Source: Iphione sp. A-MEVVRFRX5
Taxonomy: Eukaryota
Length of the DNA stretch: 64,000 nt
Assembly: GCA_976226885.1 (NCBI GenBank)
Contig: OZ320313.1
Coordinates: forward strand, 79,546,001 to 79,610,000
Direction: 5' to 3'
Shown in pieces: positions 28,483-46,300 of the stretch; position 1 is the stretch's first letter; the number at the start of each line of letters is the position of its first letter. The position numbers and the translations under genes are program-made. The notes under the pieces were generated by a model. It ran no database searches, was not told the origin of the DNA, and saw nothing but the letters and a program-made list of their open reading frames with translations.

Positions 28483-29998
28483 TACACGGTATAGCAATGG
28501 CATCTGTGGGTATCTCGCGTGTTGAGAGGCATGTAACCAGCCTACTGACATCCCAACAGATCCGGCGGCGGAAAGCATAAATCAATGCAGCTCAGTGGAC
28601 TATTCATCAAGCTGCCTTCATCACTCCTTTCTTTACATCAAAAAGACACACGTGCCAATAAGGAAGAGTCAAAGCTGGGTTACGGCCGGCTGGCAGAAAC
28701 GGTTCATTCACGGCTAAAGGTAGAGAGAGAAGAAGCGTCATGGCAACAACGTTAGCATCTGGCATCACTTCAGATTTTCATTTATGTATGTAAAAGTAGC
28801 ATATTATACACATTTGCTTACGTAGCTAGCTAGGAGATGTTCCTTGTCAAAAAAGGTCCATAAGGAGACTAGGAAGGGGACCTACTGTCCCTCGCTAACC
28901 ATTCAATCAAGTTGAACTAATTACATGTAGTTATACTTGGGTGGACAGACTAATTCAGTTTCGTGGCTTCAAATCAACAAACAAACTATATGCATGTCAG
29001 TATGTGTGTGCAACAACACATTACATGCCTTATGCATGTAAGAGTGCCACAGAATGCACATGTTGCTTACGTAGACAGCTGGGAAATGTTCATTCCTTCT
29101 CGGTCTCTTCTGAGCTTGTTCCGAGGTTTGATTCGGGCCCTATCATGTGTGTGAGTGATAAATGCCCCTATCTGGGAATAGGGTTGGATTTGGTGGTGAT
29201 AAGCATTGTTTCGTTTACCAGAGGTCCCAAGGCCTATTTTGAAGCCAACAATACAAAGTTCCAGGACAGCATAATCAAATGTGGCAGTTTTCTACTCATC
29301 TGGCTCGATCAAGCAGCCACGTTTCTGATTAAAATTTTATTTCAGGCGCTCGTTACCGCCGAAATTCGCCCAGCACGTACGGATATTTCCAACTACCTAG
29401 AAGCAAGCAGATAAAACAATCCCGGTCAAGGAGGAAGCCGCTCACATGTTGACAAGAAAGAAACCGCTGTTGGAGGAGATAGTGGATGAGAATAACAAGC
29501 AATTTAACGATAAGAGACTGAATCAATACTAACATTTTCTGTCCGACAGCGATCGAAGTGGCCGCCAATGATAATCCACTGAGAGGGAAGCGTGCGCCTC
29601 AACGGCAGCACCCAGTCTCCGGGTTTGTTCAGATCGGTAGGCATTTTTCCTGATCTAATCAGCGGTGCGGGGAAAACCCCGTGGACGGGAGTACGATTCA
29701 CATTGCGGCCGTGAGGGAAAAAAAACATCCTCCATGAAGGAGGGTGATAGCCTTCCATTAAATCGTCAAACACTTCCTTGATCTAATGAGGTGCGTTTTT
29801 AAAAAAAGATAAACACACAGAGGTGGTGTATGAGCGGGAACAATCTATACCGAAGAATTACTAGCAAACCAAACGGAGAGCTGCATTAGCATTAAAACAT
29901 AATGGGGTCCATAGCCTATGGTTCAAACATCAGATGCAACCAAGACAAGGATCCCGAGTTAAGTCGGCCGCCGACTGACTGGGCCGCCGACACACTCG

Positions 29999-35728: not shown

Positions 35729-35821
35729 AATGGGTCCACGTGACGTTTGGTCACGGGGCGTCATTACCCAGAGCGTGCAGTGACCTCAGTTCGCGTCCAA
35801 CCGTCGAACTGAGCGGATTGC
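35729..35821 (+). repeat. Split direct repeat A1 (93 bp), identical to A2 at 40320-40412
   Basis: Base-by-base comparison shows no difference. Confidence 0.95.
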
Positions 35822-35841
35822 ACGGATTAACCCAAATAGCG

Positions 35842-37182
35842 ATGTCCGACAGCGAAGCCCCAGCACTGGACCCCGCGCCGGACACCCCGCCGCCGGCCCA
35901 GCCAAAGCCGGGGGGCTCCGGGGACAACCCCAACGAGCCCCAACCGACGGGGACAACTAGGAATCCACTGGAAGAGAGGATCGCCAGACTGGAGACGGGC
36001 ATCGAGATATTGCTGGCCCTACACCAAAAACGTGACAGGAAAAAGAGCAAGAGCAAGAACGACGCCAACCCTGTACCGGACGCTAACCCGACTCCCGCTC
36101 CACAGCCCGCGGCTCCTAACGTTCCGAGCACTTCCGCAGGTAACCAGCAGGGCCAGACCACTCCCGCACAGACGCACAAGAATACAGATGGCCCCAGCAC
36201 TCCGAGAAGCGCACAAGGACACAAATCGCCCGACAAGACTGGCCGCTCAATACCGCCTGTCCCGCCCAAAAAGCGCGGGAAACACCACAAGGTAATCGTC
36301 AAGAAAGGTAGCCCCACCTATCACTCATCGAGGAAAGGCAAGCGCACACACAGGCGACGCGTCCCTTCCCCTGTTTTCTCCGACTCGGAGGACGACGAGG
36401 ACGATGACGACGACGAGCCTGAATCCTCGGGCTGGACTTCCTCGTCAGGGGACGAGAACACTATCAGGAAGCGCCGCAGAATACCACGTGAGACCATGGC
36501 ATACGTGGATCGCTCCCTGCAGTCCGAGGCAACCACTACCTTTAAAAAGACCAAAGGTAAGAAGGTTTATGATCCAGTTCGCGAGAAGATGGTGCAGTTC
36601 TGGCGCCCGTACATGAGCCTGTACGAGCTGGCCGAGGACATTAAGGATAGGGCCTCCCCTGACGACTTATCCCCCGCGGAGCACGCCCTTGGCTTTCTCG
36701 CTATGATCAGGAAGACGATTCTCCCCCGGTCGACGCTCTGGTACCAGATCGTCCACGTAGAGTACATCCTGCATGACTCCCTGTTCCATAAATGGCATAA
36801 CGTTCGTCGGTGGTCCCTGTCTGTTGTGCACCAGATAAACCAAGGGATCCTTCGATGGAAGGATGAGGCTATTATTAAGGAGATGCGGACCTCCATCGCT
36901 CTCTGCCGAGGACAGAAGGAGGATACCCTACCAGACGCCCCTTGCATGTCATATAACATGGCCACCTGCTCTAGGCCGCACAAGCATAGGGAAGCTGGCA
37001 CGGCCCAACATCATCGATGCGCTGTGTGCTGGCTGGGAGTCGCCAACAAAGACTGCCAGCACACCGCCATGGAATGTGTCAGAAAGGCGAAAATGGCCCC
37101 CGCAGCGAAGACCGAAGGTACCGACAAAACCAAGAGGAAGGACATGAGGCCCGACTCAAAAAACGGGTCATCGAGGGATTAG
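35842..37182 (+). CDS. Ngaro ORF1, gag-like protein (446 aa from ATG 35842)
   Basis: P/S-rich, basic and acidic disordered N-half; C-terminal Cys/His knuckle-like region CMSYNMATC..H..HHRCAVC..CQHTAMEC. Confidence 0.85.
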   Translation: MSDSEAPALDPAPDTPPPAQPKPGGSGDNPNEPQPTGTTRNPLEERIARLETGIEILLALHQKRDRKKSKSKNDANPVPDANPTPAPQPAAPNVPSTSAGNQQGQTTPAQTHKNTDGPSTPRSAQGHKSPDKTGRSIPPVPPKKRGKHHKVIVKKGSPTYHSSRKGKRTHRRRVPSPVFSDSEDDEDDDDDEPESSGWTSSSGDENTIRKRRRIPRETMAYVDRSLQSEATTTFKKTKGKKVYDPVREKMVQFWRPYMSLYELAEDIKDRASPDDLSPAEHALGFLAMIRKTILPRSTLWYQIVHVEYILHDSLFHKWHNVRRWSLSVVHQINQGILRWKDEAIIKEMRTSIALCRGQKEDTLPDAPCMSYNMATCSRPHKHREAGTAQHHRCAVCWLGVANKDCQHTAMECVRKAKMAPAAKTEGTDKTKRKDMRPDSKNGSSRD

Positions 37183-39176
37183 TAGCCGGCACCTCCCCCG
37201 AGCACCCGCCTGACACCGGCCACAGCCGCTCTACCGATGAACGACCCCCTTGCATTGCCCCCGGACTAATCCCCGTGGCCCCCTCGACGGGCGACCACGA
37301 CGTCCACGATGACAATGACCCAATTGTCACAAGCATCAACAGCAGCTTCGACAACGACCTAGCTCCACTGCCGCAGCTCCCGTCGTCGCCAGACCCGCGG
37401 GACGTTGCGACGACTGCCCACCGCCCTAATCCCCGACTGTCAACAGTCAACCGCCCGTGGTTCACAGCCAGCCTGGCCCAGCATCGGGCCCGGACGTGGC
37501 CGAGGATTGCGACTGCCTGTGGTACCTCGGCAGCCGACACGTACCGCAGAGTCGCTAGACTTGGACACCCTAACACCCTCGGGGCTAGGATTACACTCCA
37601 ATCTGCGCTAATCCCTGCCCATTGGGATAGAGCGGCGTGCGGGCACAGCGAGGACACCCTAGTCCTTGACGGTATCCGCTATGGCTTTCCGCTCCACTAT
37701 GCGGGACCGCCTATTGACCGCAGGCAAGTCACCAACCACCCCTCCGCCCGCGCATTTCCCGACGCACTAAGGAAATACTTCGACGAGGAGGTTCGCCTGG
37801 GCGCCCTCATGGGACCCTTCCCCCACCCACCCTTCGATGAGTGGTGCGCCGTGGCCCCCCTAATGACCCGCCCCAAGTCGGATGGTACCCGCCGAGTCAT
37901 CGTGGACCTGTCCTACCCCCCCGACCACGCTGTCAACACATATGTCCAGAAAGGGTATATGTATGGCGTGGATAGGTCTCACACCCTCCCCACTGTCAGC
38001 GACCTCGTCGACCTAGTCAAGCACGCTCCGTCACCTGCATTCCTCGCTGTTGTCGACCTGAAGCGGGCATACCGGCATTTCCCGGTATGCCCCGCTGACT
38101 GGCCCCTCCTGTGCCTGACCTTCGAGGGAGCCTACTATGTCGATACTGCCTTGCCCTTCGGGGCAAGACTCAGCGCTATGGCCATGCAAAAGGTCGCGGA
38201 CTTCATCACCAGGCACCTGCAGTCTATTGGAGTATCCTGTCTGATGTACCTCGACGACTTGGTGATATACGCCCCCGACCACCGCAATGCTGCCGCACAC
38301 ATGACACGAGCGATCAAGTTCCTCGAATCCCTAGGCCTGACTGTGGCAAAGAACAAACTCCAGGGCCCTGACACCCAGGTAGTCTGGCTCGGGATTACTA
38401 TTGACACAGCACGGGCCACCCTCACCATTCCCCGCGCCAAGCTCCTTGAGTACCGTGACTACTTCCACCAAGTCATGTACCAACCCGCCCTGAGTACTAG
38501 CCAGGTACAGTCCGTGGTTGGCAGAGTCAACCACATGGCCAAAGCCATACCAGCGGCTAGGCTTTTCATGGCCAGGATCCTCGCGAAGCTGAGGCAGGGA
38601 GGTCAAGTTCACAGGGTCGACGACGACTTCCGCGCGGACCTCCGGTGGCTCCGGGATTTCTCGGAGGCACACAATGGGGTCGCCTTCTTCCCGCCGGACC
38701 ACCACCACAAGACCATCGAAGCAGACGCGTCACTGACGGGGGGCGGCGGCCACGACGGCACCTACTGCTACTCACTGGAATGGCCACCCAGCATCGCCTC
38801 GTCACACCATATCTCACAGCTCGAGGCGATGAACTGCCTGGCGGCCATCCGTGTCCTGGTTTCTGAGCAAGACAAAGGAAAACGGATCCAGCTGGTCTGC
38901 GACAATGCGCCCACCATCGACATACTGAGGTCCGGCCGCGCCCGCGATCCGGTTCTCGCCGCCTGTGCCAGATCCATCTGGTTCCACCTCGAGGCGGTAG
39001 GAGCGTTCCTGACACCAGAGCATCGACCGGGGTCAGAGATGACTCTCCCTGACGCACTTAGCAGGGAGTCCCTCTCAGACACCCACAGCCAGCTCGCACA
39101 ACACATCATCACCCAACACTCTATCACACGTATCACTGCACCAGCCTGGGTATTCGACTACTCATATCATCTCTAA
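37017..39176 (+). CDS. Ngaro ORF2, reverse transcriptase plus RNase H (true start uncertain; probably reached by -1 frameshift at 37158-37164)
   Basis: RT motifs YGFPL, RVIVDLSYP, DLKRAYRHFPV, ALPFG, YLDD, WLGITID; RNase H motifs ADASLTGGG, ISQLEA, CDN, PDALSR. Uninterrupted 719 codons. Confidence 0.95.
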   Translation: MRCVLAGSRQQRLPAHRHGMCQKGENGPRSEDRRYRQNQEEGHEARLKKRVIEGLVAGTSPEHPPDTGHSRSTDERPPCIAPGLIPVAPSTGDHDVHDDNDPIVTSINSSFDNDLAPLPQLPSSPDPRDVATTAHRPNPRLSTVNRPWFTASLAQHRARTWPRIATACGTSAADTYRRVARLGHPNTLGARITLQSALIPAHWDRAACGHSEDTLVLDGIRYGFPLHYAGPPIDRRQVTNHPSARAFPDALRKYFDEEVRLGALMGPFPHPPFDEWCAVAPLMTRPKSDGTRRVIVDLSYPPDHAVNTYVQKGYMYGVDRSHTLPTVSDLVDLVKHAPSPAFLAVVDLKRAYRHFPVCPADWPLLCLTFEGAYYVDTALPFGARLSAMAMQKVADFITRHLQSIGVSCLMYLDDLVIYAPDHRNAAAHMTRAIKFLESLGLTVAKNKLQGPDTQVVWLGITIDTARATLTIPRAKLLEYRDYFHQVMYQPALSTSQVQSVVGRVNHMAKAIPAARLFMARILAKLRQGGQVHRVDDDFRADLRWLRDFSEAHNGVAFFPPDHHHKTIEADASLTGGGGHDGTYCYSLEWPPSIASSHHISQLEAMNCLAAIRVLVSEQDKGKRIQLVCDNAPTIDILRSGRARDPVLAACARSIWFHLEAVGAFLTPEHRPGSEMTLPDALSRESLSDTHSQLAQHIITQHSITRITAPAWVFDYSYHL

Positions 39177-40093
39177 TTACAGATTACCACTACAACCAGC
39201 TCCTCATAGCCGCAGAAGCTAGGCAGCAGCAAGCGCGACGCCCGGGCACCATCAAGAACCGCCTATCGGCGCTGAGAGCTTATATTAAGTTCTCAGCGAG
39301 CTTCGGAGTCGCGTTCCGCCGGCCATCGCCTGCCCATATCTGTGCCTTCATCGAGACCCGTGCAGCGGTCTCCACGGCAGCCAGCGTTGCGAACACCATC
39401 AGCGCGCTGACAGCCCACTTCGAGGCTAAAGGGCGTGACACTACCCCGTGGCGCTCCCCGCTCGTGAAGAACGCGCTGGCGGCACTGCGCCTAGTCCCTC
39501 GGCCTCCGCCGTCAGCACGCCTACCTGTCGGCATCGAGAAGTTACGTCAGATCATAGCTCATCTTCAGGATGACCCCCAGCGACGCCCCCTGATTGCTGC
39601 GACACTGGTCCTCTTCTGGTCCCTGCTGCGCCAATCGAACTTGCTGCCGCAGAACATCAGGTCATTCGACCCCGATAGGCAAGTGCTCCGTCGTCACGTC
39701 GTCGAGTCCGCGGGCGGCCTCGACATCACCGTCGTATGGTCGAAGACACGGCAACACTTCCGCACCACACGCCACATCACCATCTTGGCGCGCGGAGACG
39801 ACCTCTGCCCGCTAGCAGCGCACCAACGCATGCTGGAGGGCAACCCGACACGGCGCAACTCCCAGGCGTACATCTGCTCGGAAGGGGGGGCGACCCCCCT
39901 CCCCCTCTCCTACGTGCGTCCGGCCTGGAAACGGGCCGTGGCCGCAGCTGGACTGGACCCGAGGGTCCATACGCTCCATGGACTAAGGCATGGCGGGACC
40001 CGACATGCCGCACATGCTGGGGTTCCCCTTAAGTCCATCCTCGCCCGCGGGGACTGGCGGTCTGCCGCAGCTCGTCGCTACCTACCACAATGA
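39062..40093 (+). CDS. Ngaro ORF3, tyrosine recombinase (stop-to-stop frame 39062-40093; no ATG before the catalytic core)
   Basis: Manual translation extends the tracked ORF upstream (GTIKNRLSALRAYIKF, SVANTISAL). Catalytic set R (LLRQSN), K (WSKT), HxxR (HGLR), W (GDWRS), Y (RRYL) is all present. Confidence 0.92.
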   Translation, partial: QGVPLRHPQPARTTHHHPTLYHTYHCTSLGIRLLISSLITDYHYNQLLIAAEARQQQARRPGTIKNRLSALRAYIKFSASFGVAFRRPSPAHICAFIETRAAVSTAASVANTISALTAHFEAKGRDTTPWRSPLVKNALAALRLVPRPPPSARLPVGIEKLRQIIAHLQDDPQRRPLIAATLVLFWSLLRQSNLLPQNIRSFDPDRQVLRRHVVESAGGLDITVVWSKTRQHFRTTRHITILARGDDLCPLAAHQRMLEGNPTRRNSQAYICSEGGATPLPLSYVRPAWKRAVAAAGLDPRVHTLHGLRHGGTRHAAHAGVPLKSILARGDWRSAAARRYLPQ

Positions 40094-40097
40094 CTTT

Positions 40098-40323
40098 GGC
40101 GCACATGCCATACACACACACACACACACACATACCGACGACACGCTCGCTCACACCTTGCTCACACCCGCCACACTGAGCATACACACACCTTGACATC
40201 ACAGACGTCGCTCAATTAGCGCTGATTATTGATTGTTACTACTACCTTGCCTGATGTTCACCTGTTCCTTACTTGTCTTAAGAAATAAATGTTCTCCACT
40301 GCACGTCTCGACTTGTTGTAATG
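40098..40323 (+). repeat. Split direct repeat B1 (226 bp), matching B2 at 40462-40685 (224 bp)
   Basis: Identical except for one CA unit in an internal (CA)n; each copy has AATAAA (40284, 40646). Confidence 0.95.
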
Positions 40324-43300
40324 GGTCCACGTGACGTTTGGTCACGGGGCGTCATTACCCAGAGCGTGCAGTGACCTCAGTTCGCGTCCAACCGTCGAAC
40401 TGAGCGGATTGCCACCCACCCGCCCTACAATTTTACCTGCTGGTCTACTGACCTGCAATAGGGCGCACATGCCATACACACACACACACACACATACCGA
40501 CGACACGCTCGCTCACACCTTGCTCACACCCGCCACACTGAGCATACACACACCTTGACATCACAGACGTCGCTCAATTAGCGCTGATTATTGATTGTTA
40601 CTACTACCTTGCCTGATGTTCACCTGTTCCTTACTTGTCTTAAGAAATAAATGTTCTCCACTGCACGTCTCGACTTGTTGTAATGTAGATCATAACCAAA
40701 CTAGCAACAGCCAGCCTCATACAACAGAGAGCACCAATCGAATTTACCTCCGCTGCCATAAGCGTGCATCGACTTGTCTGGACAGACCTACTGATATTTG
40801 GCAGCTCTCGAGGAGGTTCCTAGCCAAACACACCGTTATTCTCTCTAAAACGAACCAGACTAAATCAATTACGTCACATCTGTAGGATATGCAAGGGTGA
40901 TGATTCTCTCTATGAAGCGCAGAGGAGCTTTGGGTCGGCCTCTGGACATATTCATATCCTCCGAAGTCGAGATATAGAATACCATAATGCCGAAACGAGT
41001 CAACTTTACATATTTCGGGCCACTTTTCAGGACATCGTGTGTAGGCAATTCCTCTCTTTAAGTTTCGTTGAATTTACACATGCTTAATATGTTGATTATA
41101 ACATAGATGGTTTGATAAGGTAGGTTTAATATGTATCCACTGTCCACGCTAAGAGACCCACTGATGTGATTTTGTAACAACCCATAACTAAGGATAAAAC
41201 GAAGCTAATCACATGCCTCTGTAAGTTATGCTAACGGATCCGTTAGCATTTCTTGAATGTGTCCAGAATGAGTATTTATGCAAATGGATGCATTTCTCCA
41301 TAGGAAAACACTACAGGAGGACATCTGGTAAATATGTGGTTGTCATTATCCACGCCAAAATCATCTGTGAATAATGTTAATGGACCCATTTGCGTAATTT
41401 TCAGATACATGTGAAACCCGCCTAACGATGCTTTTACGTCAAGTGTAAAGTGTTTTTAGAGGTAGAAAATTCAATAAGTCGACAACAGCCTTTCTATGTT
41501 GACTGGTTTCATGCTGCGAGTACATGGACTTATACCAGGACATCAGACGTCATTTCGGTTGGCTGCAGTGTCCTACCGGACTTGCTGTCGCTATTTTACA
41601 AGCGTTACTTCCACTGGAACGACAGTGACTGGTCCGTAATGCTATAAACAGGTGCAATACCATACAGAAGACCAGGTAACCCCACTACACCTCGCACTGA
41701 TTCAACTGTCAATATATATTAAGCCTCCGGCATGCTTTCGTGTTCGAATCTGAACTGACAGGCTGACAGGGGAAATCCTCCGTGACGCACACAAATCTGA
41801 CAGAGACTTGCTCGTTTCCCAATGATTGGATCCATTGTGAGATTGCCACGATGAAATATGCCACATTTGCGCGGATTTCTATGTCCACATCTGTGGAAAT
41901 TCTAGAATGATGCCCAGCATCAAATGTATCTATTCGAACGGCTAGGTTTACGGAGTGAATGACACAACACCGCGAAAAGTGAGGGATAAACATTAATTCC
42001 GCTACGATATATACGTAACAATGCATGCCTTGTTAAGAGACTATTAAAAAAATGCTGCTTCTCACGCGAATTCATTCCTTCTCGGAAGTCATCAAACCTG
42101 CTCTTCCCTAAAAAAAAACAAAACACGGCGATGTTAATAGCCTGCAGCTTGTCCGAGCCTTTCCAATGTAGAGTGGATTATCAATCCGATGAAGTGTTCG
42201 GCACACGACAGACAGCCATCCTGGCACAACGATTAGTGGCAAGACGAAGTCATGCTCATGTGCCTCTTCATCAAATGGCGAGGCTCCATTGTGTTCTCGG
42301 ATGACGTGCATGACTAGGCGCCATCCCACACAGCTCGCCCAACACGCCCAGACGACATGCGGACCGCATCTTCTATCAAATGCAGGACTGACTACGGTGC
42401 TTTTATAATGCATTTATATATACATGTACATATACTTATGCAGGCGTGCGTATGTACACGTAAATATATATGTACATGTTACAAAAACGGACCCTAGAGT
42501 GTAGCAGACTATTGTTTGTACACAATCAGGAGTACGCCTTTTGTTGTTGCTGTTGTTGTTGTTGCACACTTTGTTCATGCTGAATAAACGTAGAAACAAA
42601 TCTCTTGTTGACCTCATTTCTTCGTAAATATGCCCTGCCGGAGTACATGTAACATTTTTTCGATAAATGTGTATGGCGAAAGATTGTGCGCGTTTGTCTC
42701 TTTACACTTTACAGGGATTTTTTCATGACCTGAACGAAAGACGTACTGTACCCATCATTCAGTAACTTAACATAGCGATCTGAAGAAGGCTAAGTCATTA
42801 TGATACTCTCCACAACGGATCTGACTTTTAACATTTTGTATTGATAATGAAATACTTGTCCCATCTCCCTGTATTTAGAGCAGTACTGTGCTGTAGTGTA
42901 CACACATGCACGGATAGGTATTCATATAAGAGCGTTCCTTGTTAACTGCGCAGAACCAACTATTGGCTCCAAACATGGGTACCTTCGCTACTCTTGCTGA
43001 CCGGACCGTTGCGATATGGACCCGTACCACGCCAGGGGTGTCTTGGGGAGGCTATACTTCGACCGGGAGACCTCGTACTTGGCAGAGCAGGGACAAAGCC
43101 CGCCCTTACAATCGAGCAGCTCAGTGGGTAAATCAGTAACGCTCGGCGGCCACTGTCACCATCAATCGCCTCACAGAAAGCGGGCGGGCGGCTGGACCGG
43201 GGGCCAATTGATGGCAGCCGGCTCTCAGGCTTCCAAAGCCACCCCTACCTCCCGACTATCAGGTATGTAGCTGCACACTGTCACCTTTGCAGACACGTGG

Positions 43301-46300
43301 CTGATTGGTGGGGCTGTATATCATCTATGTATGCGGTGGCTTCCAAAAAAAAACTCTAATAAATACAGCACAATCTACGTGAATACAAAAAAGGTGGATC
43401 GGTGGAACGTGGCTCTTCAGTAAACGTTTGGAAATGATGGAGAACGTAGACCGTATGGGATACAAGTAATATACAGGATGAACGCACGTATGACACTTAA
43501 GTAATCAGCATACTTACAGAGCGGATCATACAGAGGTACGGCTGAGGAAGTATATGAATTAACGACCCATAGCCCAACACTATCATATGTATATATATGG
43601 CAGTGTGATGAGAAAATAATTTCGCACCCACGAAACACAACTGAAGGTGTTTCAGAATAACACCTTTCGATAGACACGCCCTTCCGTTTAAATAAATCGA
43701 ATAACACCTTTCTAATAACACGCCTTTCCATTTCAATGAAGCGAAATATCTATAATCATACTTTAATGAACTTAAGTATCGGTCCTTCAAAACAACCCAT
43801 TGCAGGTAGCAATGAAATGGACGGTCCTGGAATGACGTCAACTGCTTTTCATCCAAATTTAACAGCAATATTCCCGATCTCCGCCTGAATATAAATCTGA
43901 ACTTCCGTTGACAATATGAAACTGTGAAAGAGTATGGGCCTATGATACTTTGGCCCGGAAGATTGGCTTTGTTCGCTGAGGAGCTTCAGTCCGGACTTTC
44001 TATCTGTCGGTGCTTTCTACCGCTAGGCAGCGCCACCGTCGCCCCACCGGTACAGACCGGAACTCATGAAACTGGCCGAAGTCGCCCACAGAGGCTACGA
44101 CCTTAGAGAGCAAACCGGGAGAGACGAACTGAGGAAAATTGATCGGTCGTGGGTGTTTTCCCTATTTATTCCAACCCGCTCGAGTAAAACACGAATTCTT
44201 TCGGAGAGCAAGAAACCTGACCAAGGTTAGTGCCCCTGTATGTATCATGTGACACTAGAAAATTCCAAAAACCAATTTCGCGATAAAAATTTTAGATCAA
44301 AGAAATACGAAACTATATGGGATAAAACACAAGGCTGCTCATATTTGTCCTCTTGCATCATGTCAAGAATGAATTTAAAACAAGCTATTAAAAATCGAGT
44401 TGCACGAAAAAGTAAAGCGTAAATATAAACATGTGACGAGCGGACTGCAGTATGGAGGTAGCAGGAATACTTAAACAATGCTGCAAATATCTAACATAAC
44501 TTTTAATGGGCCCTTTGCAACGACATGGTAAATCATACATGTATTTCTAATTTCCCGCTGGACCACTATTAGCATTTCATTACATATGGTCAACGTTTTA
44601 ATTTAGAGTAAGATTAATTTCTGCTGCAATGGAAACTTGAGTTTACAGAATGGTTAGTTGGTAACACAGTCATCTTCACGGGCACCATGTATGTGTTTGT
44701 GCTTTGCTTCCTCACAATCTCTTATTCTTACTGTTGACTATAGGGTAGGGACGGCAAAACTAATCATCAACCTTCAAATCATGACTGTGATGTGAGTCTG
44801 TGATGATTACACCAAATTGAAAATACATGTATATTTATATATATATATACTACAAATAGCCACTATATAAAAACCTGACTATCATCTGTAATTCAAGCTA
44901 CTTTGTTTTCAATCCATGACATCTCTGTTAAACGACAGGTCCTTTACAGGCGAACATTGTGCAAATAGCCTTACTGATCTCAATACGAAAAGTAAAGACT
45001 TTTGGGCAGGACAGCCTTTAGACAGATCCAAAGACTGGCATCCCTTAGGCTGAGCTGCTCTTTGTATGGGACTCATTACCTGCTGATTAGTTCCGGACAG
45101 CTGCCAGGTGTAAGTGAGCTACAAGTCATGGCCGACAATGGGTACCAAGTGCTTGCCAAACCAGCAATCCACTCAGACTACTGGCGCCGGCCCGGGGCCT
45201 AGACTCGAGACTGGGACTCGTGGGAGGGCCTGATCATTTCCTGCCTGGAGTCAAGCCATCCCTGGGTTCCTGGCTCTTAGTTCTCTCATGCCAGCAAAGG
45301 ACGGAACCTGCAGGTGACTGTGCAGAGGAGCTACTCACAGCTACCGGATGGCACTGGCGTGCAGCAGCCAGGGCGACGTGCCTCTGATGTAGGTAGCTCG
45401 TTAAGGAAGTGATCGGTAATCACATAGGCCAGCGTTTCTACACGTACCACGGCCGTCATCTGAGGTGAATTAATGTTTAATTGGCCGCAGCCGAATGATG
45501 AGATTCCATACATTTTCATTCTGCCGACTTGTCGTGTGTCGTATCAGGAAGTGACCCCACACTGGAAGCATGGCCCACTGACATGGGCAGTAGTAGAACA
45601 TGACAGAGCGGCTAATGCTAAATATGTGTGATCCCTCCATAAAACTGCCTCCCTCAGGAATGGCTAGCGTGTTCCACATTTGTATTGGTCCTATCTCTTC
45701 TTTCTACATTTCACTATTGTTCTTATATCCAAGGTTATATAAAACCGGTAGGAGCGCTATAAAGGTTGATTCATACTTGTACCTCAGCCATAACCTCAAC
45801 AAATAAATGCTATAATAGATTAAACCTGATTGTGGAACTCGCCCCAGCTGTTATAGACCTCAAGAAAGAGACCAAATGACTGGAGTACATACAATATAAA
45901 TGTAAATGACTAGGCTGGCGACAGCTTGCTGAGCCCACTAATTTGCAGGCCTCATTCAGGTCAATGATCAATACCTCGGCGATCAATGTCAAGTCGCTCC
46001 GCCAAACCTCTTACTAAGTGTGCTTTTTCAAATAGTGCTGCCAGATAATAAGACGTTTTCCTACATTTGCTAAGTGTCAGCTTTAGAGATAAAATGACAT
46101 CATTGTGTCGATAATGGGTGTCTTATGTAGGCTTTGTGCTCACTTCAAAATGCCCCAGCGGAAATAAATAAAGCTATTTTGTCCCGGGAGATTAAAGCGG
46201 CAGCCCCATACACCAGCCTGCCCGCTGTCACCTGCTTTGATTAGCCTTTCGGGAAGCAGCCTAAATCACGTTCCTTTCTGTTCAAGGGTGTCTGCGACAG

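Follow-up and report, generated by a model that had tools for sequence, protein, structure and literature searches.

A conserved slippery heptamer at the gag/RT overlap points to -1 ribosomal frameshifting in an Ngaro retrotransposon of Iphione sp.

Coding regions and the signal at the end of gag

The stretch analysed here, called the window, comprises 64,000 nt of the genome of Iphione sp. A-MEVVRFRX5 (assembly GCA_976226885.1, contig OZ320313.1, positions 79,546,001 to 79,610,000 of the forward strand), and it carries an Ngaro retrotransposon at 35729-40685, inside a eukaryotic genome of 1.18 Gb. The order along the element is repeat A1, gag (446 aa), reverse transcriptase (RT)/RNase H, tyrosine recombinase (YR), and the repeats B1, A2 and B2. 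A slippery site at the end of gag is conserved among its relatives, and -1 frameshifting there would very probably produce a predicted 1111-aa Gag-RT/RNase H protein. The features concerned, in window coordinates, are the following:

35842..37182, + strand: gag open reading frame (ORF), 446 aa, first AUG at 35842, stop codon TAG at 37180-37182
36943..37029, + strand: Cys/His zinc-knuckle-like motif of Gag, recognised in the translation, which served as the anchor for relatives
37158..37164, + strand: slippery heptamer A_AAA_AAC in gag phase, present in 108/117 relatives and in 22/30 loci of a second clade
37165..37170, + strand: 6-nt spacer GGGTCA, gap-free in 33 aligned sequences
37164..39176, + strand: RT/RNase H in the -1 frame past the shift site, 670 aa, frame open from 36990
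39183..40093, + strand: coding part of the tyrosine recombinase, first AUG only at 39830, frame open from 39062

The gag frame ends TCA AAA AAC GGG TCA TCG AGG GAT TAG, so that A_AAA_AAC stands in X_XXY_YYZ phase 15 nt upstream of the gag stop, with the RT frame offset by -1, and it is the sole in-phase slippery heptamer across the three ORFs. The initial annotation had proposed a frameshift signal on these grounds, and its coordinates for the heptamer, the phasing, the 15-nt distance, the 6-nt spacer and the -1 RT frame were all reproduced, while the length of about 1110 aa that it gave for the predicted fusion was recomputed as 441 + 670 = 1111 aa. The RT domain matches Pfam RVT_1 (E 3.4e-16); RNase H was recognised by motifs in the translation, with no profile match and no matching solved structure for this part, and the gag product matched no Pfam family. 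Matches of the YR were weak (Phage_integrase, E 1.4e-5; Phage_int_SAM_1, E 2.3e-4), both lying under the curated cut-offs.

Conservation of the heptamer and of the -1 frame

Relatives in the same genome were picked by their RT protein and not by the gag/RT junction. Two of the 132 RT matches, from one split locus, were omitted, and 13 of the 130 loci used had no recognisable zinc knuckle, which left 117 gag-bearing relatives. A_AAA_AAY occurs in gag phase within 10 codons of the gag stop in 108 of them (A_AAA_AAC in 103, A_AAA_AAU in 5) and starts 22 nt (35 loci), 13 nt (1), 10 nt (20) or 7 nt (52) before the stop, while slippery heptamers in the remaining two phases number 3/117 and 8/117. 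Among the 22 uncounted loci, the seven letters are still present upstream of RT in 17. The terminal x-Lys-Asn motif is spelled NNA AAA in 108 of 109 cases, where synonymous usage would predict 9.0 and where 4 of 43 internal Lys-Asn pairs have this spelling; the constraint acts on the nucleotides. At other places in gag and RT, only 7 of 47 occurrences of these seven letters have the slippery phase, and the run of six A is kept at six in 104 of the 108 loci. These loci are not copies of one family, as they form 101 clusters at 90% and 52 clusters at 70% RT identity, with a median RT identity of 52%. A separate clade at 39-46% identity, represented by the first 30 of the 131 loci that a distant RT matched, carries the heptamer in 22 loci, including 16 of the 17 with a recognised knuckle. 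The initial annotation had made its proposal depend on conservation of an in-frame heptamer in related families, and in both sets of relatives the heptamer proved to be conserved in phase.

The RT frame overlapping the end of gag is the -1 frame in 91 of 93 loci, and it is open from the heptamer to the RT core in 88 of 108, across a linker that spans 61-170 codons and is poorly conserved. This frame is not maintained upstream of the heptamer, with a stop at most five codons away in 27 of the 88. Two RT-frame AUGs precede the heptamer in the window copy (37017 and 37074), and initiation at ATG 37017 had been named as an outcome that would speak against frameshifting. Such a start is not shared across the family: just 17 of the 88 intact loci have an RT-frame AUG ahead of the heptamer, there is none before the RT core in 24, and the first one lies anywhere between -205 and +122 codons around the core start, a scatter of 327 codons. 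Because the RT-frame AUGs are scattered and unconserved, ATG 37017 is considered incidental. The downstream ORF lies in the -1 frame, is open past the site and has no conserved start of its own, which is the arrangement that frameshift expression presupposes.

Structure downstream of the heptamer

The two stems proposed for the window copy are located as follows:

37171..37178, + strand: stem 1, 5' strand
37182..37189, + strand: stem 2, 5' strand, within the loop of stem 1
37194..37201, + strand: stem 1, 3' strand
37216..37223, + strand: stem 2, 3' strand

Stem 1 (37171-78/37194-201) and stem 2 (37182-89/37216-23) each form 7/8 pairs, as the initial annotation had stated, with one A.C mismatch; however, the pseudoknot of the window copy taken alone does not rise above chance. 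Its junction loop is CACC (4 nt) and its last loop has 14 nt. Structure was tested in the window copy's own subclade, in which the heptamer starts 22 nt before the gag stop (33 sequences once two near-duplicates of 35 were dropped; hereafter the -22 subclade), and where the heptamer through stem 1 aligned gap-free. Stretched to ten pairs, stem 1 was 72.1% paired and both sides had changed in 15 cells, which was matched in 0/500 shuffles. For stem 2, each loop paired with its own downstream strand at -12.0 kcal/mol versus -9.4 kcal/mol with swapped partners (0/20000 permutations), and 12 of 33 sequences did better than 95% of shuffles, where about 2 were expected. With a fixed loop register a good helix was found in 25 of 33, with G-C, A-U and C-G swapping at three positions; this register was fitted, and the same fitting yielded 14.8 with true partners versus 11.6 with swapped and 10.9 with shuffled ones. 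Pseudoknot energies obtained as helix sums, which is a crude model, preferred the knot in 24 of 33 sequences and in the window copy (-18.7 vs -14.7 kcal/mol). Taken from this co-variation, a two-stem pseudoknot is probably formed in the -22 subclade.

The A.C mismatch of stem 1 (window 37174/37198; alignment column 17/41) is kept in 21 of the 33 sequences; this may reflect a tuning pair, a pH-sensitive one, or a constraint from the Arg codon of the gag frame.

Outside this subclade the heptamer is followed by other arrangements. Where it starts 7 nt before the gag stop, the stop directly follows it and excess folding was found in 26 of 50 loci. The second clade has long hairpins with a mean z-score of -2.17, of which 16 of 22 fall below -1.5 (1, 3 and 1 of 22 in the flanks). 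In the second-clade loci L188, L194, L198 and L203 the heptamer stands 43-46 nt ahead of the gag stop, and the long hairpin encloses the stop codon. The compensatory stem changes that the initial annotation had looked to appear as co-variation within the -22 subclade, and the pseudoknot likely belongs to this one subclade, while elsewhere the heptamer is followed by hairpins or directly by a stop.

Expression of the recombinase

Published articles are cited here by accession, each for the passages that bear on the point. A probable frameshift at the RT/YR overlap has been proposed for Ngaro elements (Poulter and Butler 2015 as quoted in PMC13003380). The window copy has two features of another kind:

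36554..36562, + strand: predicted splice donor AAG/GTAAGA, phase 1, exon end at 36556, conserved in gag ORFs
39173..39182, + strand: predicted branch point CTAAT, which includes the RT stop TAA, and acceptor CAG, phase 1

At this donor position a fixed Gly codon of gag is spelled GGT, with AAG or AGG next, in 102 of 105 ORFs, although GGT makes up 22% of Gly codons; it reads as a phase-1 donor. The end of RT was analysed in 84 of 101 loci, the other 17 being dropped as their RT frame is broken before its true end. The RT stop is TAA in 54, TGA in 30 and TAG in none of them, and it can be read as a branch point; 4-29 nt past the stop there is a YAG, and the phase-1 frame behind it is the longest open one in 79/84. 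The YR frame relative to RT is -1 in 62 loci, the same in 15 and +1 in 7, and the RT/YR overlap holds one slippery heptamer in the 84 loci. We rejected a frameshift at RT/YR, since there is no fixed YR frame and just this one heptamer. The YR is likely made by a conserved gag-to-YR splice instead, and removal of the predicted intron 36557-39182 (2626 nt) would give a predicted Gag-YR protein of 541 aa.

Repeats and Ngaro membership

The split direct repeats frame the coding regions as follows:

35729..35821, + strand: A1 (93 nt), starting with the AATG junction motif, 100% identical to A2
40098..40323, + strand: B1, with 210 nt identical to B2; the full lengths differ by one AC unit
40320..40412, + strand: A2, sharing AATG with the end of B1
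40462..40685, + strand: B2, the right border, ending in AATG

With no difference between A1 and A2 and a single AC unit between B1 and B2, the insertion is young. AATG stands at both element ends and at the B1/A2 joint (35729-35732, 40320-40323 and 40682-40685), and there is no target duplication, as expected for integration of a circle by a recombinase.

Ngaro elements are defined by repeats in the order A1-ORFs-B1-A2-B2 (PMC8547959) and are set apart from DIRS and PAT by a missing methyltransferase after RNase H (PMC4157794). The window element has split direct repeats in the order A1-[ORFs]-B1-A2-B2, with gag, RT/RNase H and YR in that order on the same strand, and Pfam searches revealed no methyltransferase family after RNase H. 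Only 36 residues lie beyond the last RNase H motif (D.LSR), likewise in 56 of 65 full-length relatives, which leaves no room for a methyltransferase domain. These features are shared with the known Ngaro elements DrNgaro1, Xenopus DIRS-53_XT and Cafeteria Ngaro 1-4 (PMC8547959, PMC4157794). By its repeats, gene order and lack of methyltransferase, the sequence fits the definition of an Ngaro retrotransposon; the trees hold unnamed sequences only.

The genome holds at least about 250 largely distinct RT loci, mostly with long open frames and with few near-identical copies, so it contains many Ngaro-type families, each at very low copy number. Outside the element, the window has a 44-nt tandem duplication (80% alike) at 43655-43742 and a 32-nt repeat pair (84% alike) at 28814-29094.

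Distant and foreign relatives

A metagenome scan yielded 28 loci at 25-41% identity, 16 of which had upstream sequence that was examined, while 12 were omitted for want of an upstream ORF; no relative was found in another metagenome scan (the first) or in a viral scan. Gag and RT share one frame across a single UGA in 12 of the 16 (L150, L151, L154, L156, L157, L160, L161, L162, L164, L168, L169 and L173), with CUA next in 9, of which 6 have CUAG. UGA-CUAG is a tested readthrough context, and UGA-CUA(G) readthrough is described for alphaviruses and for OPRL1, AQP4, MAPK10 and OPRK1 (PMC4132726); the likeness concerns these distant elements only (L150-L173) and not the window element. This distant Ngaro-like lineage likely gets the same Gag-RT fusion by a second route, UGA-CUA readthrough. 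A phase-1 donor is also present in 11 of these 12 readthrough-type elements.

Foreign RT proteins from a set of 120 homologues (35-47% identity) branch in the tree between the two heptamer-bearing clades, hence A_AAA_AAC is predicted, not shown, in other hosts. A trace of the -1 frame at their N-termini (Lys-Lys-Leu/Arg) gave 3 matches vs 16 in the control; gene callers start downstream. In P0102 one ORF encodes both a zinc knuckle and RT, a single case among the 120 proteins. In 22 of the 120, the RT reaches 60-322 residues past the usual C-terminus (e.g., P0063, P0069, P0074, P0087), and the tails tested had no Pfam domain and no similarity to YR. The Gag search revealed no homologue among proteins of 245-781 aa.

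Discussion

The gag-pro frameshift of mouse mammary tumour virus (MMTV) uses A_AAA_AAC, and the initial annotation assigned the window signal to the same type. This holds for the heptamer and the spacer, while the predicted pseudoknot differs in detail: with its 4-nt junction loop and 14-nt last loop, it has longer loops than the compact MMTV knot and no single wedged A at the stem junction (PMC5009743). According to the same source, -1 frameshifting is common in retroviruses and animal retrotransposons with long terminal repeats (LTRs), the spacer measures 5-9 nt, and A_AAA_AAC ranks with the heptamers that shift most readily on mammalian ribosomes; DIRS or Ngaro are not mentioned in the passages cited. 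The window element has in common with retroviral gag-pro and LTR gag-pol sites the X_XXY_YYZ motif and the 5-9-nt spacer and, as predicted, a downstream structure and an excess of structural protein over enzymes (PMC5009743). Unlike in retroviral gag-pro, the element has no protease or integrase and the fusion ends in RNase H, and unlike at retroviral sites, the Ngaro stimulators vary by subclade while the heptamer is invariant.

The initial annotation knew of no such signal described in Ngaro/DIRS elements. Our literature search found no frameshift signal described for Ngaro or DIRS, although the founding Ngaro paper and the 2015 review may describe slippery sites. Overlaps or broken frames are mentioned in PMC3783388, PMC6681497, PMC3266345, PMC9210276, PMC7192593, PMC3212892, PMC8969392 and bioRxiv 2022.06.16.496473, with no signal in the passages concerned. 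Frameshifting as such had already been suggested in print, but the Ngaro review places it at RT/YR, whereas the signal of the window element is at gag/RT (PMC13003380). This is a known recoding mechanism in a group of retroelements for which we found no described signal.

We propose that most ribosomes would stop at the gag TAG and release the 446-aa Gag. A minority would be held up by the structure 6 nt downstream, pausing while Lys-tRNA occupies AAA and Asn-tRNA occupies AAC, and after the tRNAs re-pair on AAA AAA, translation would go on as ...DSK(N/K)-RVIEGLVAG into RT. The stimulator would likely be the two-stem pseudoknot in the -22 subclade and a hairpin or a stop adjoining the heptamer elsewhere. 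The recombinase would be made separately from a spliced RNA joining Gag residues 1-238 to the YR exon. In retroviruses, env is likewise a third gene expressed from spliced RNA, the unspliced RNA serving as genome and gag-pol message. The Ngaro product differs in that it is predicted to be the integration enzyme fused to the first half of Gag, with the RT stop codon doubling as branch point.

Several observations weigh against this interpretation. All heptamer-bearing loci come from a single genome, and they are paralogues of common ancestry, thus the counts are not independent events. The counted heptamer is missing from 9 of 117 loci and the -1 frame is broken in 20 of 108; both groups are read as decayed copies, which is unproved. 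Regarding structure, stem 1 slid by -1 along a run of C has an equal co-variation score (0.213 vs 0.180), so co-variation alone leaves its register unfixed. Stem 2 of the window copy reaches only z -1.1 against shuffled downstream sequence, 168 of 660 control windows equal the true partner in pairing with the loop, and nested folding of 37170-37226 yields stem 1 only, at z +0.70, without singling out the region. Loci with the heptamer 10 nt before the stop show no excess folding (4/18).

The structural points feed the most serious alternative, namely that frameshifting is real and is stimulated in the window copy by stem 1 alone or by another fold. The nested fold and the 4-nt junction loop favour it, as do the 8 of 33 subclade members scoring low for stem 2 and the hairpins of other subclades; yet the loop and the downstream strand change together across the subclade, 12 of whose 33 members outdo 95% of shuffles, and the rough energy sum speaks for the knot. 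We regard this alternative as unlikely, but as one to be taken seriously. Far less credible is that RT is made alone, with the heptamer merely coding a conserved Lys-Asn; translation would then begin at an internal AUG (37017, 37074 or later), or its template would be a spliced or a shorter RNA. The two RT-frame AUGs of the window copy and a loose acceptor-like match into the RT frame at 23/88 loci would suit it, but in 71 of the 88 intact loci no RT-frame AUG precedes the heptamer, 65 have no such acceptor, and synonymous codons are excluded at the site (108/109).

RNA polymerase slippage on the six-A run, adding a base and producing transcripts with gag and RT in frame, is suggested by the A6 within the heptamer and by the use of A-run slippage in other elements (PMC5009743). 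Slippage requires no codon phase, yet the phase is invariant; moreover, the run is six long in 104/108 loci, structures stand at ribosome spacing, and an edited genomic RNA would hand the extra base to the progeny. This makes polymerase slippage highly improbable, even somewhat more so than a separately made RT. Coincidence in a GC-rich, lysine-rich gag tail accords with the window copy's stems, which alone lie within chance; it is practically negligible given 108 of 117 loci versus about 9 expected, the slippery phase in 7/47 elsewhere, and the 22/30 of the second clade, which also refute it. The conserved slippery site and -1 frameshifting at the end of gag remain our preferred interpretation, and judging by the sequences compared, the signal is real, strongly conserved and most likely functional.

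Taken together, Ngaro elements probably follow a full three-product programme from one RNA, like that of retroviruses: Gag is the default product, Gag-RT/RNase H comes from recoding whose type can be exchanged from lineage to lineage (-1 shift at an invariant A_AAA_AAC here, UGA-CUA readthrough elsewhere), and a spliced Gag-YR has the RT stop as branch point; more than 100 natural cassettes would then interchange pseudoknot, hairpin or adjacent stop behind one heptamer. The expression of overlapping, start-less ORFs in tyrosine-recombinase retrotransposons has so far been left to suggestion, and the present analysis offers exact testable sites for all three products and relocates the proposed frameshift from RT/YR to gag/RT. 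This could guide the annotation of Ngaro elements and the design of working retrotransposition reporters, and the cassettes would amount to a large natural collection of stimulators that all act on a single slippery sequence. With it, -1 frameshifting would reach a retroelement order that has neither protease nor integrase, with a split between frameshifting and readthrough as in retroviruses.

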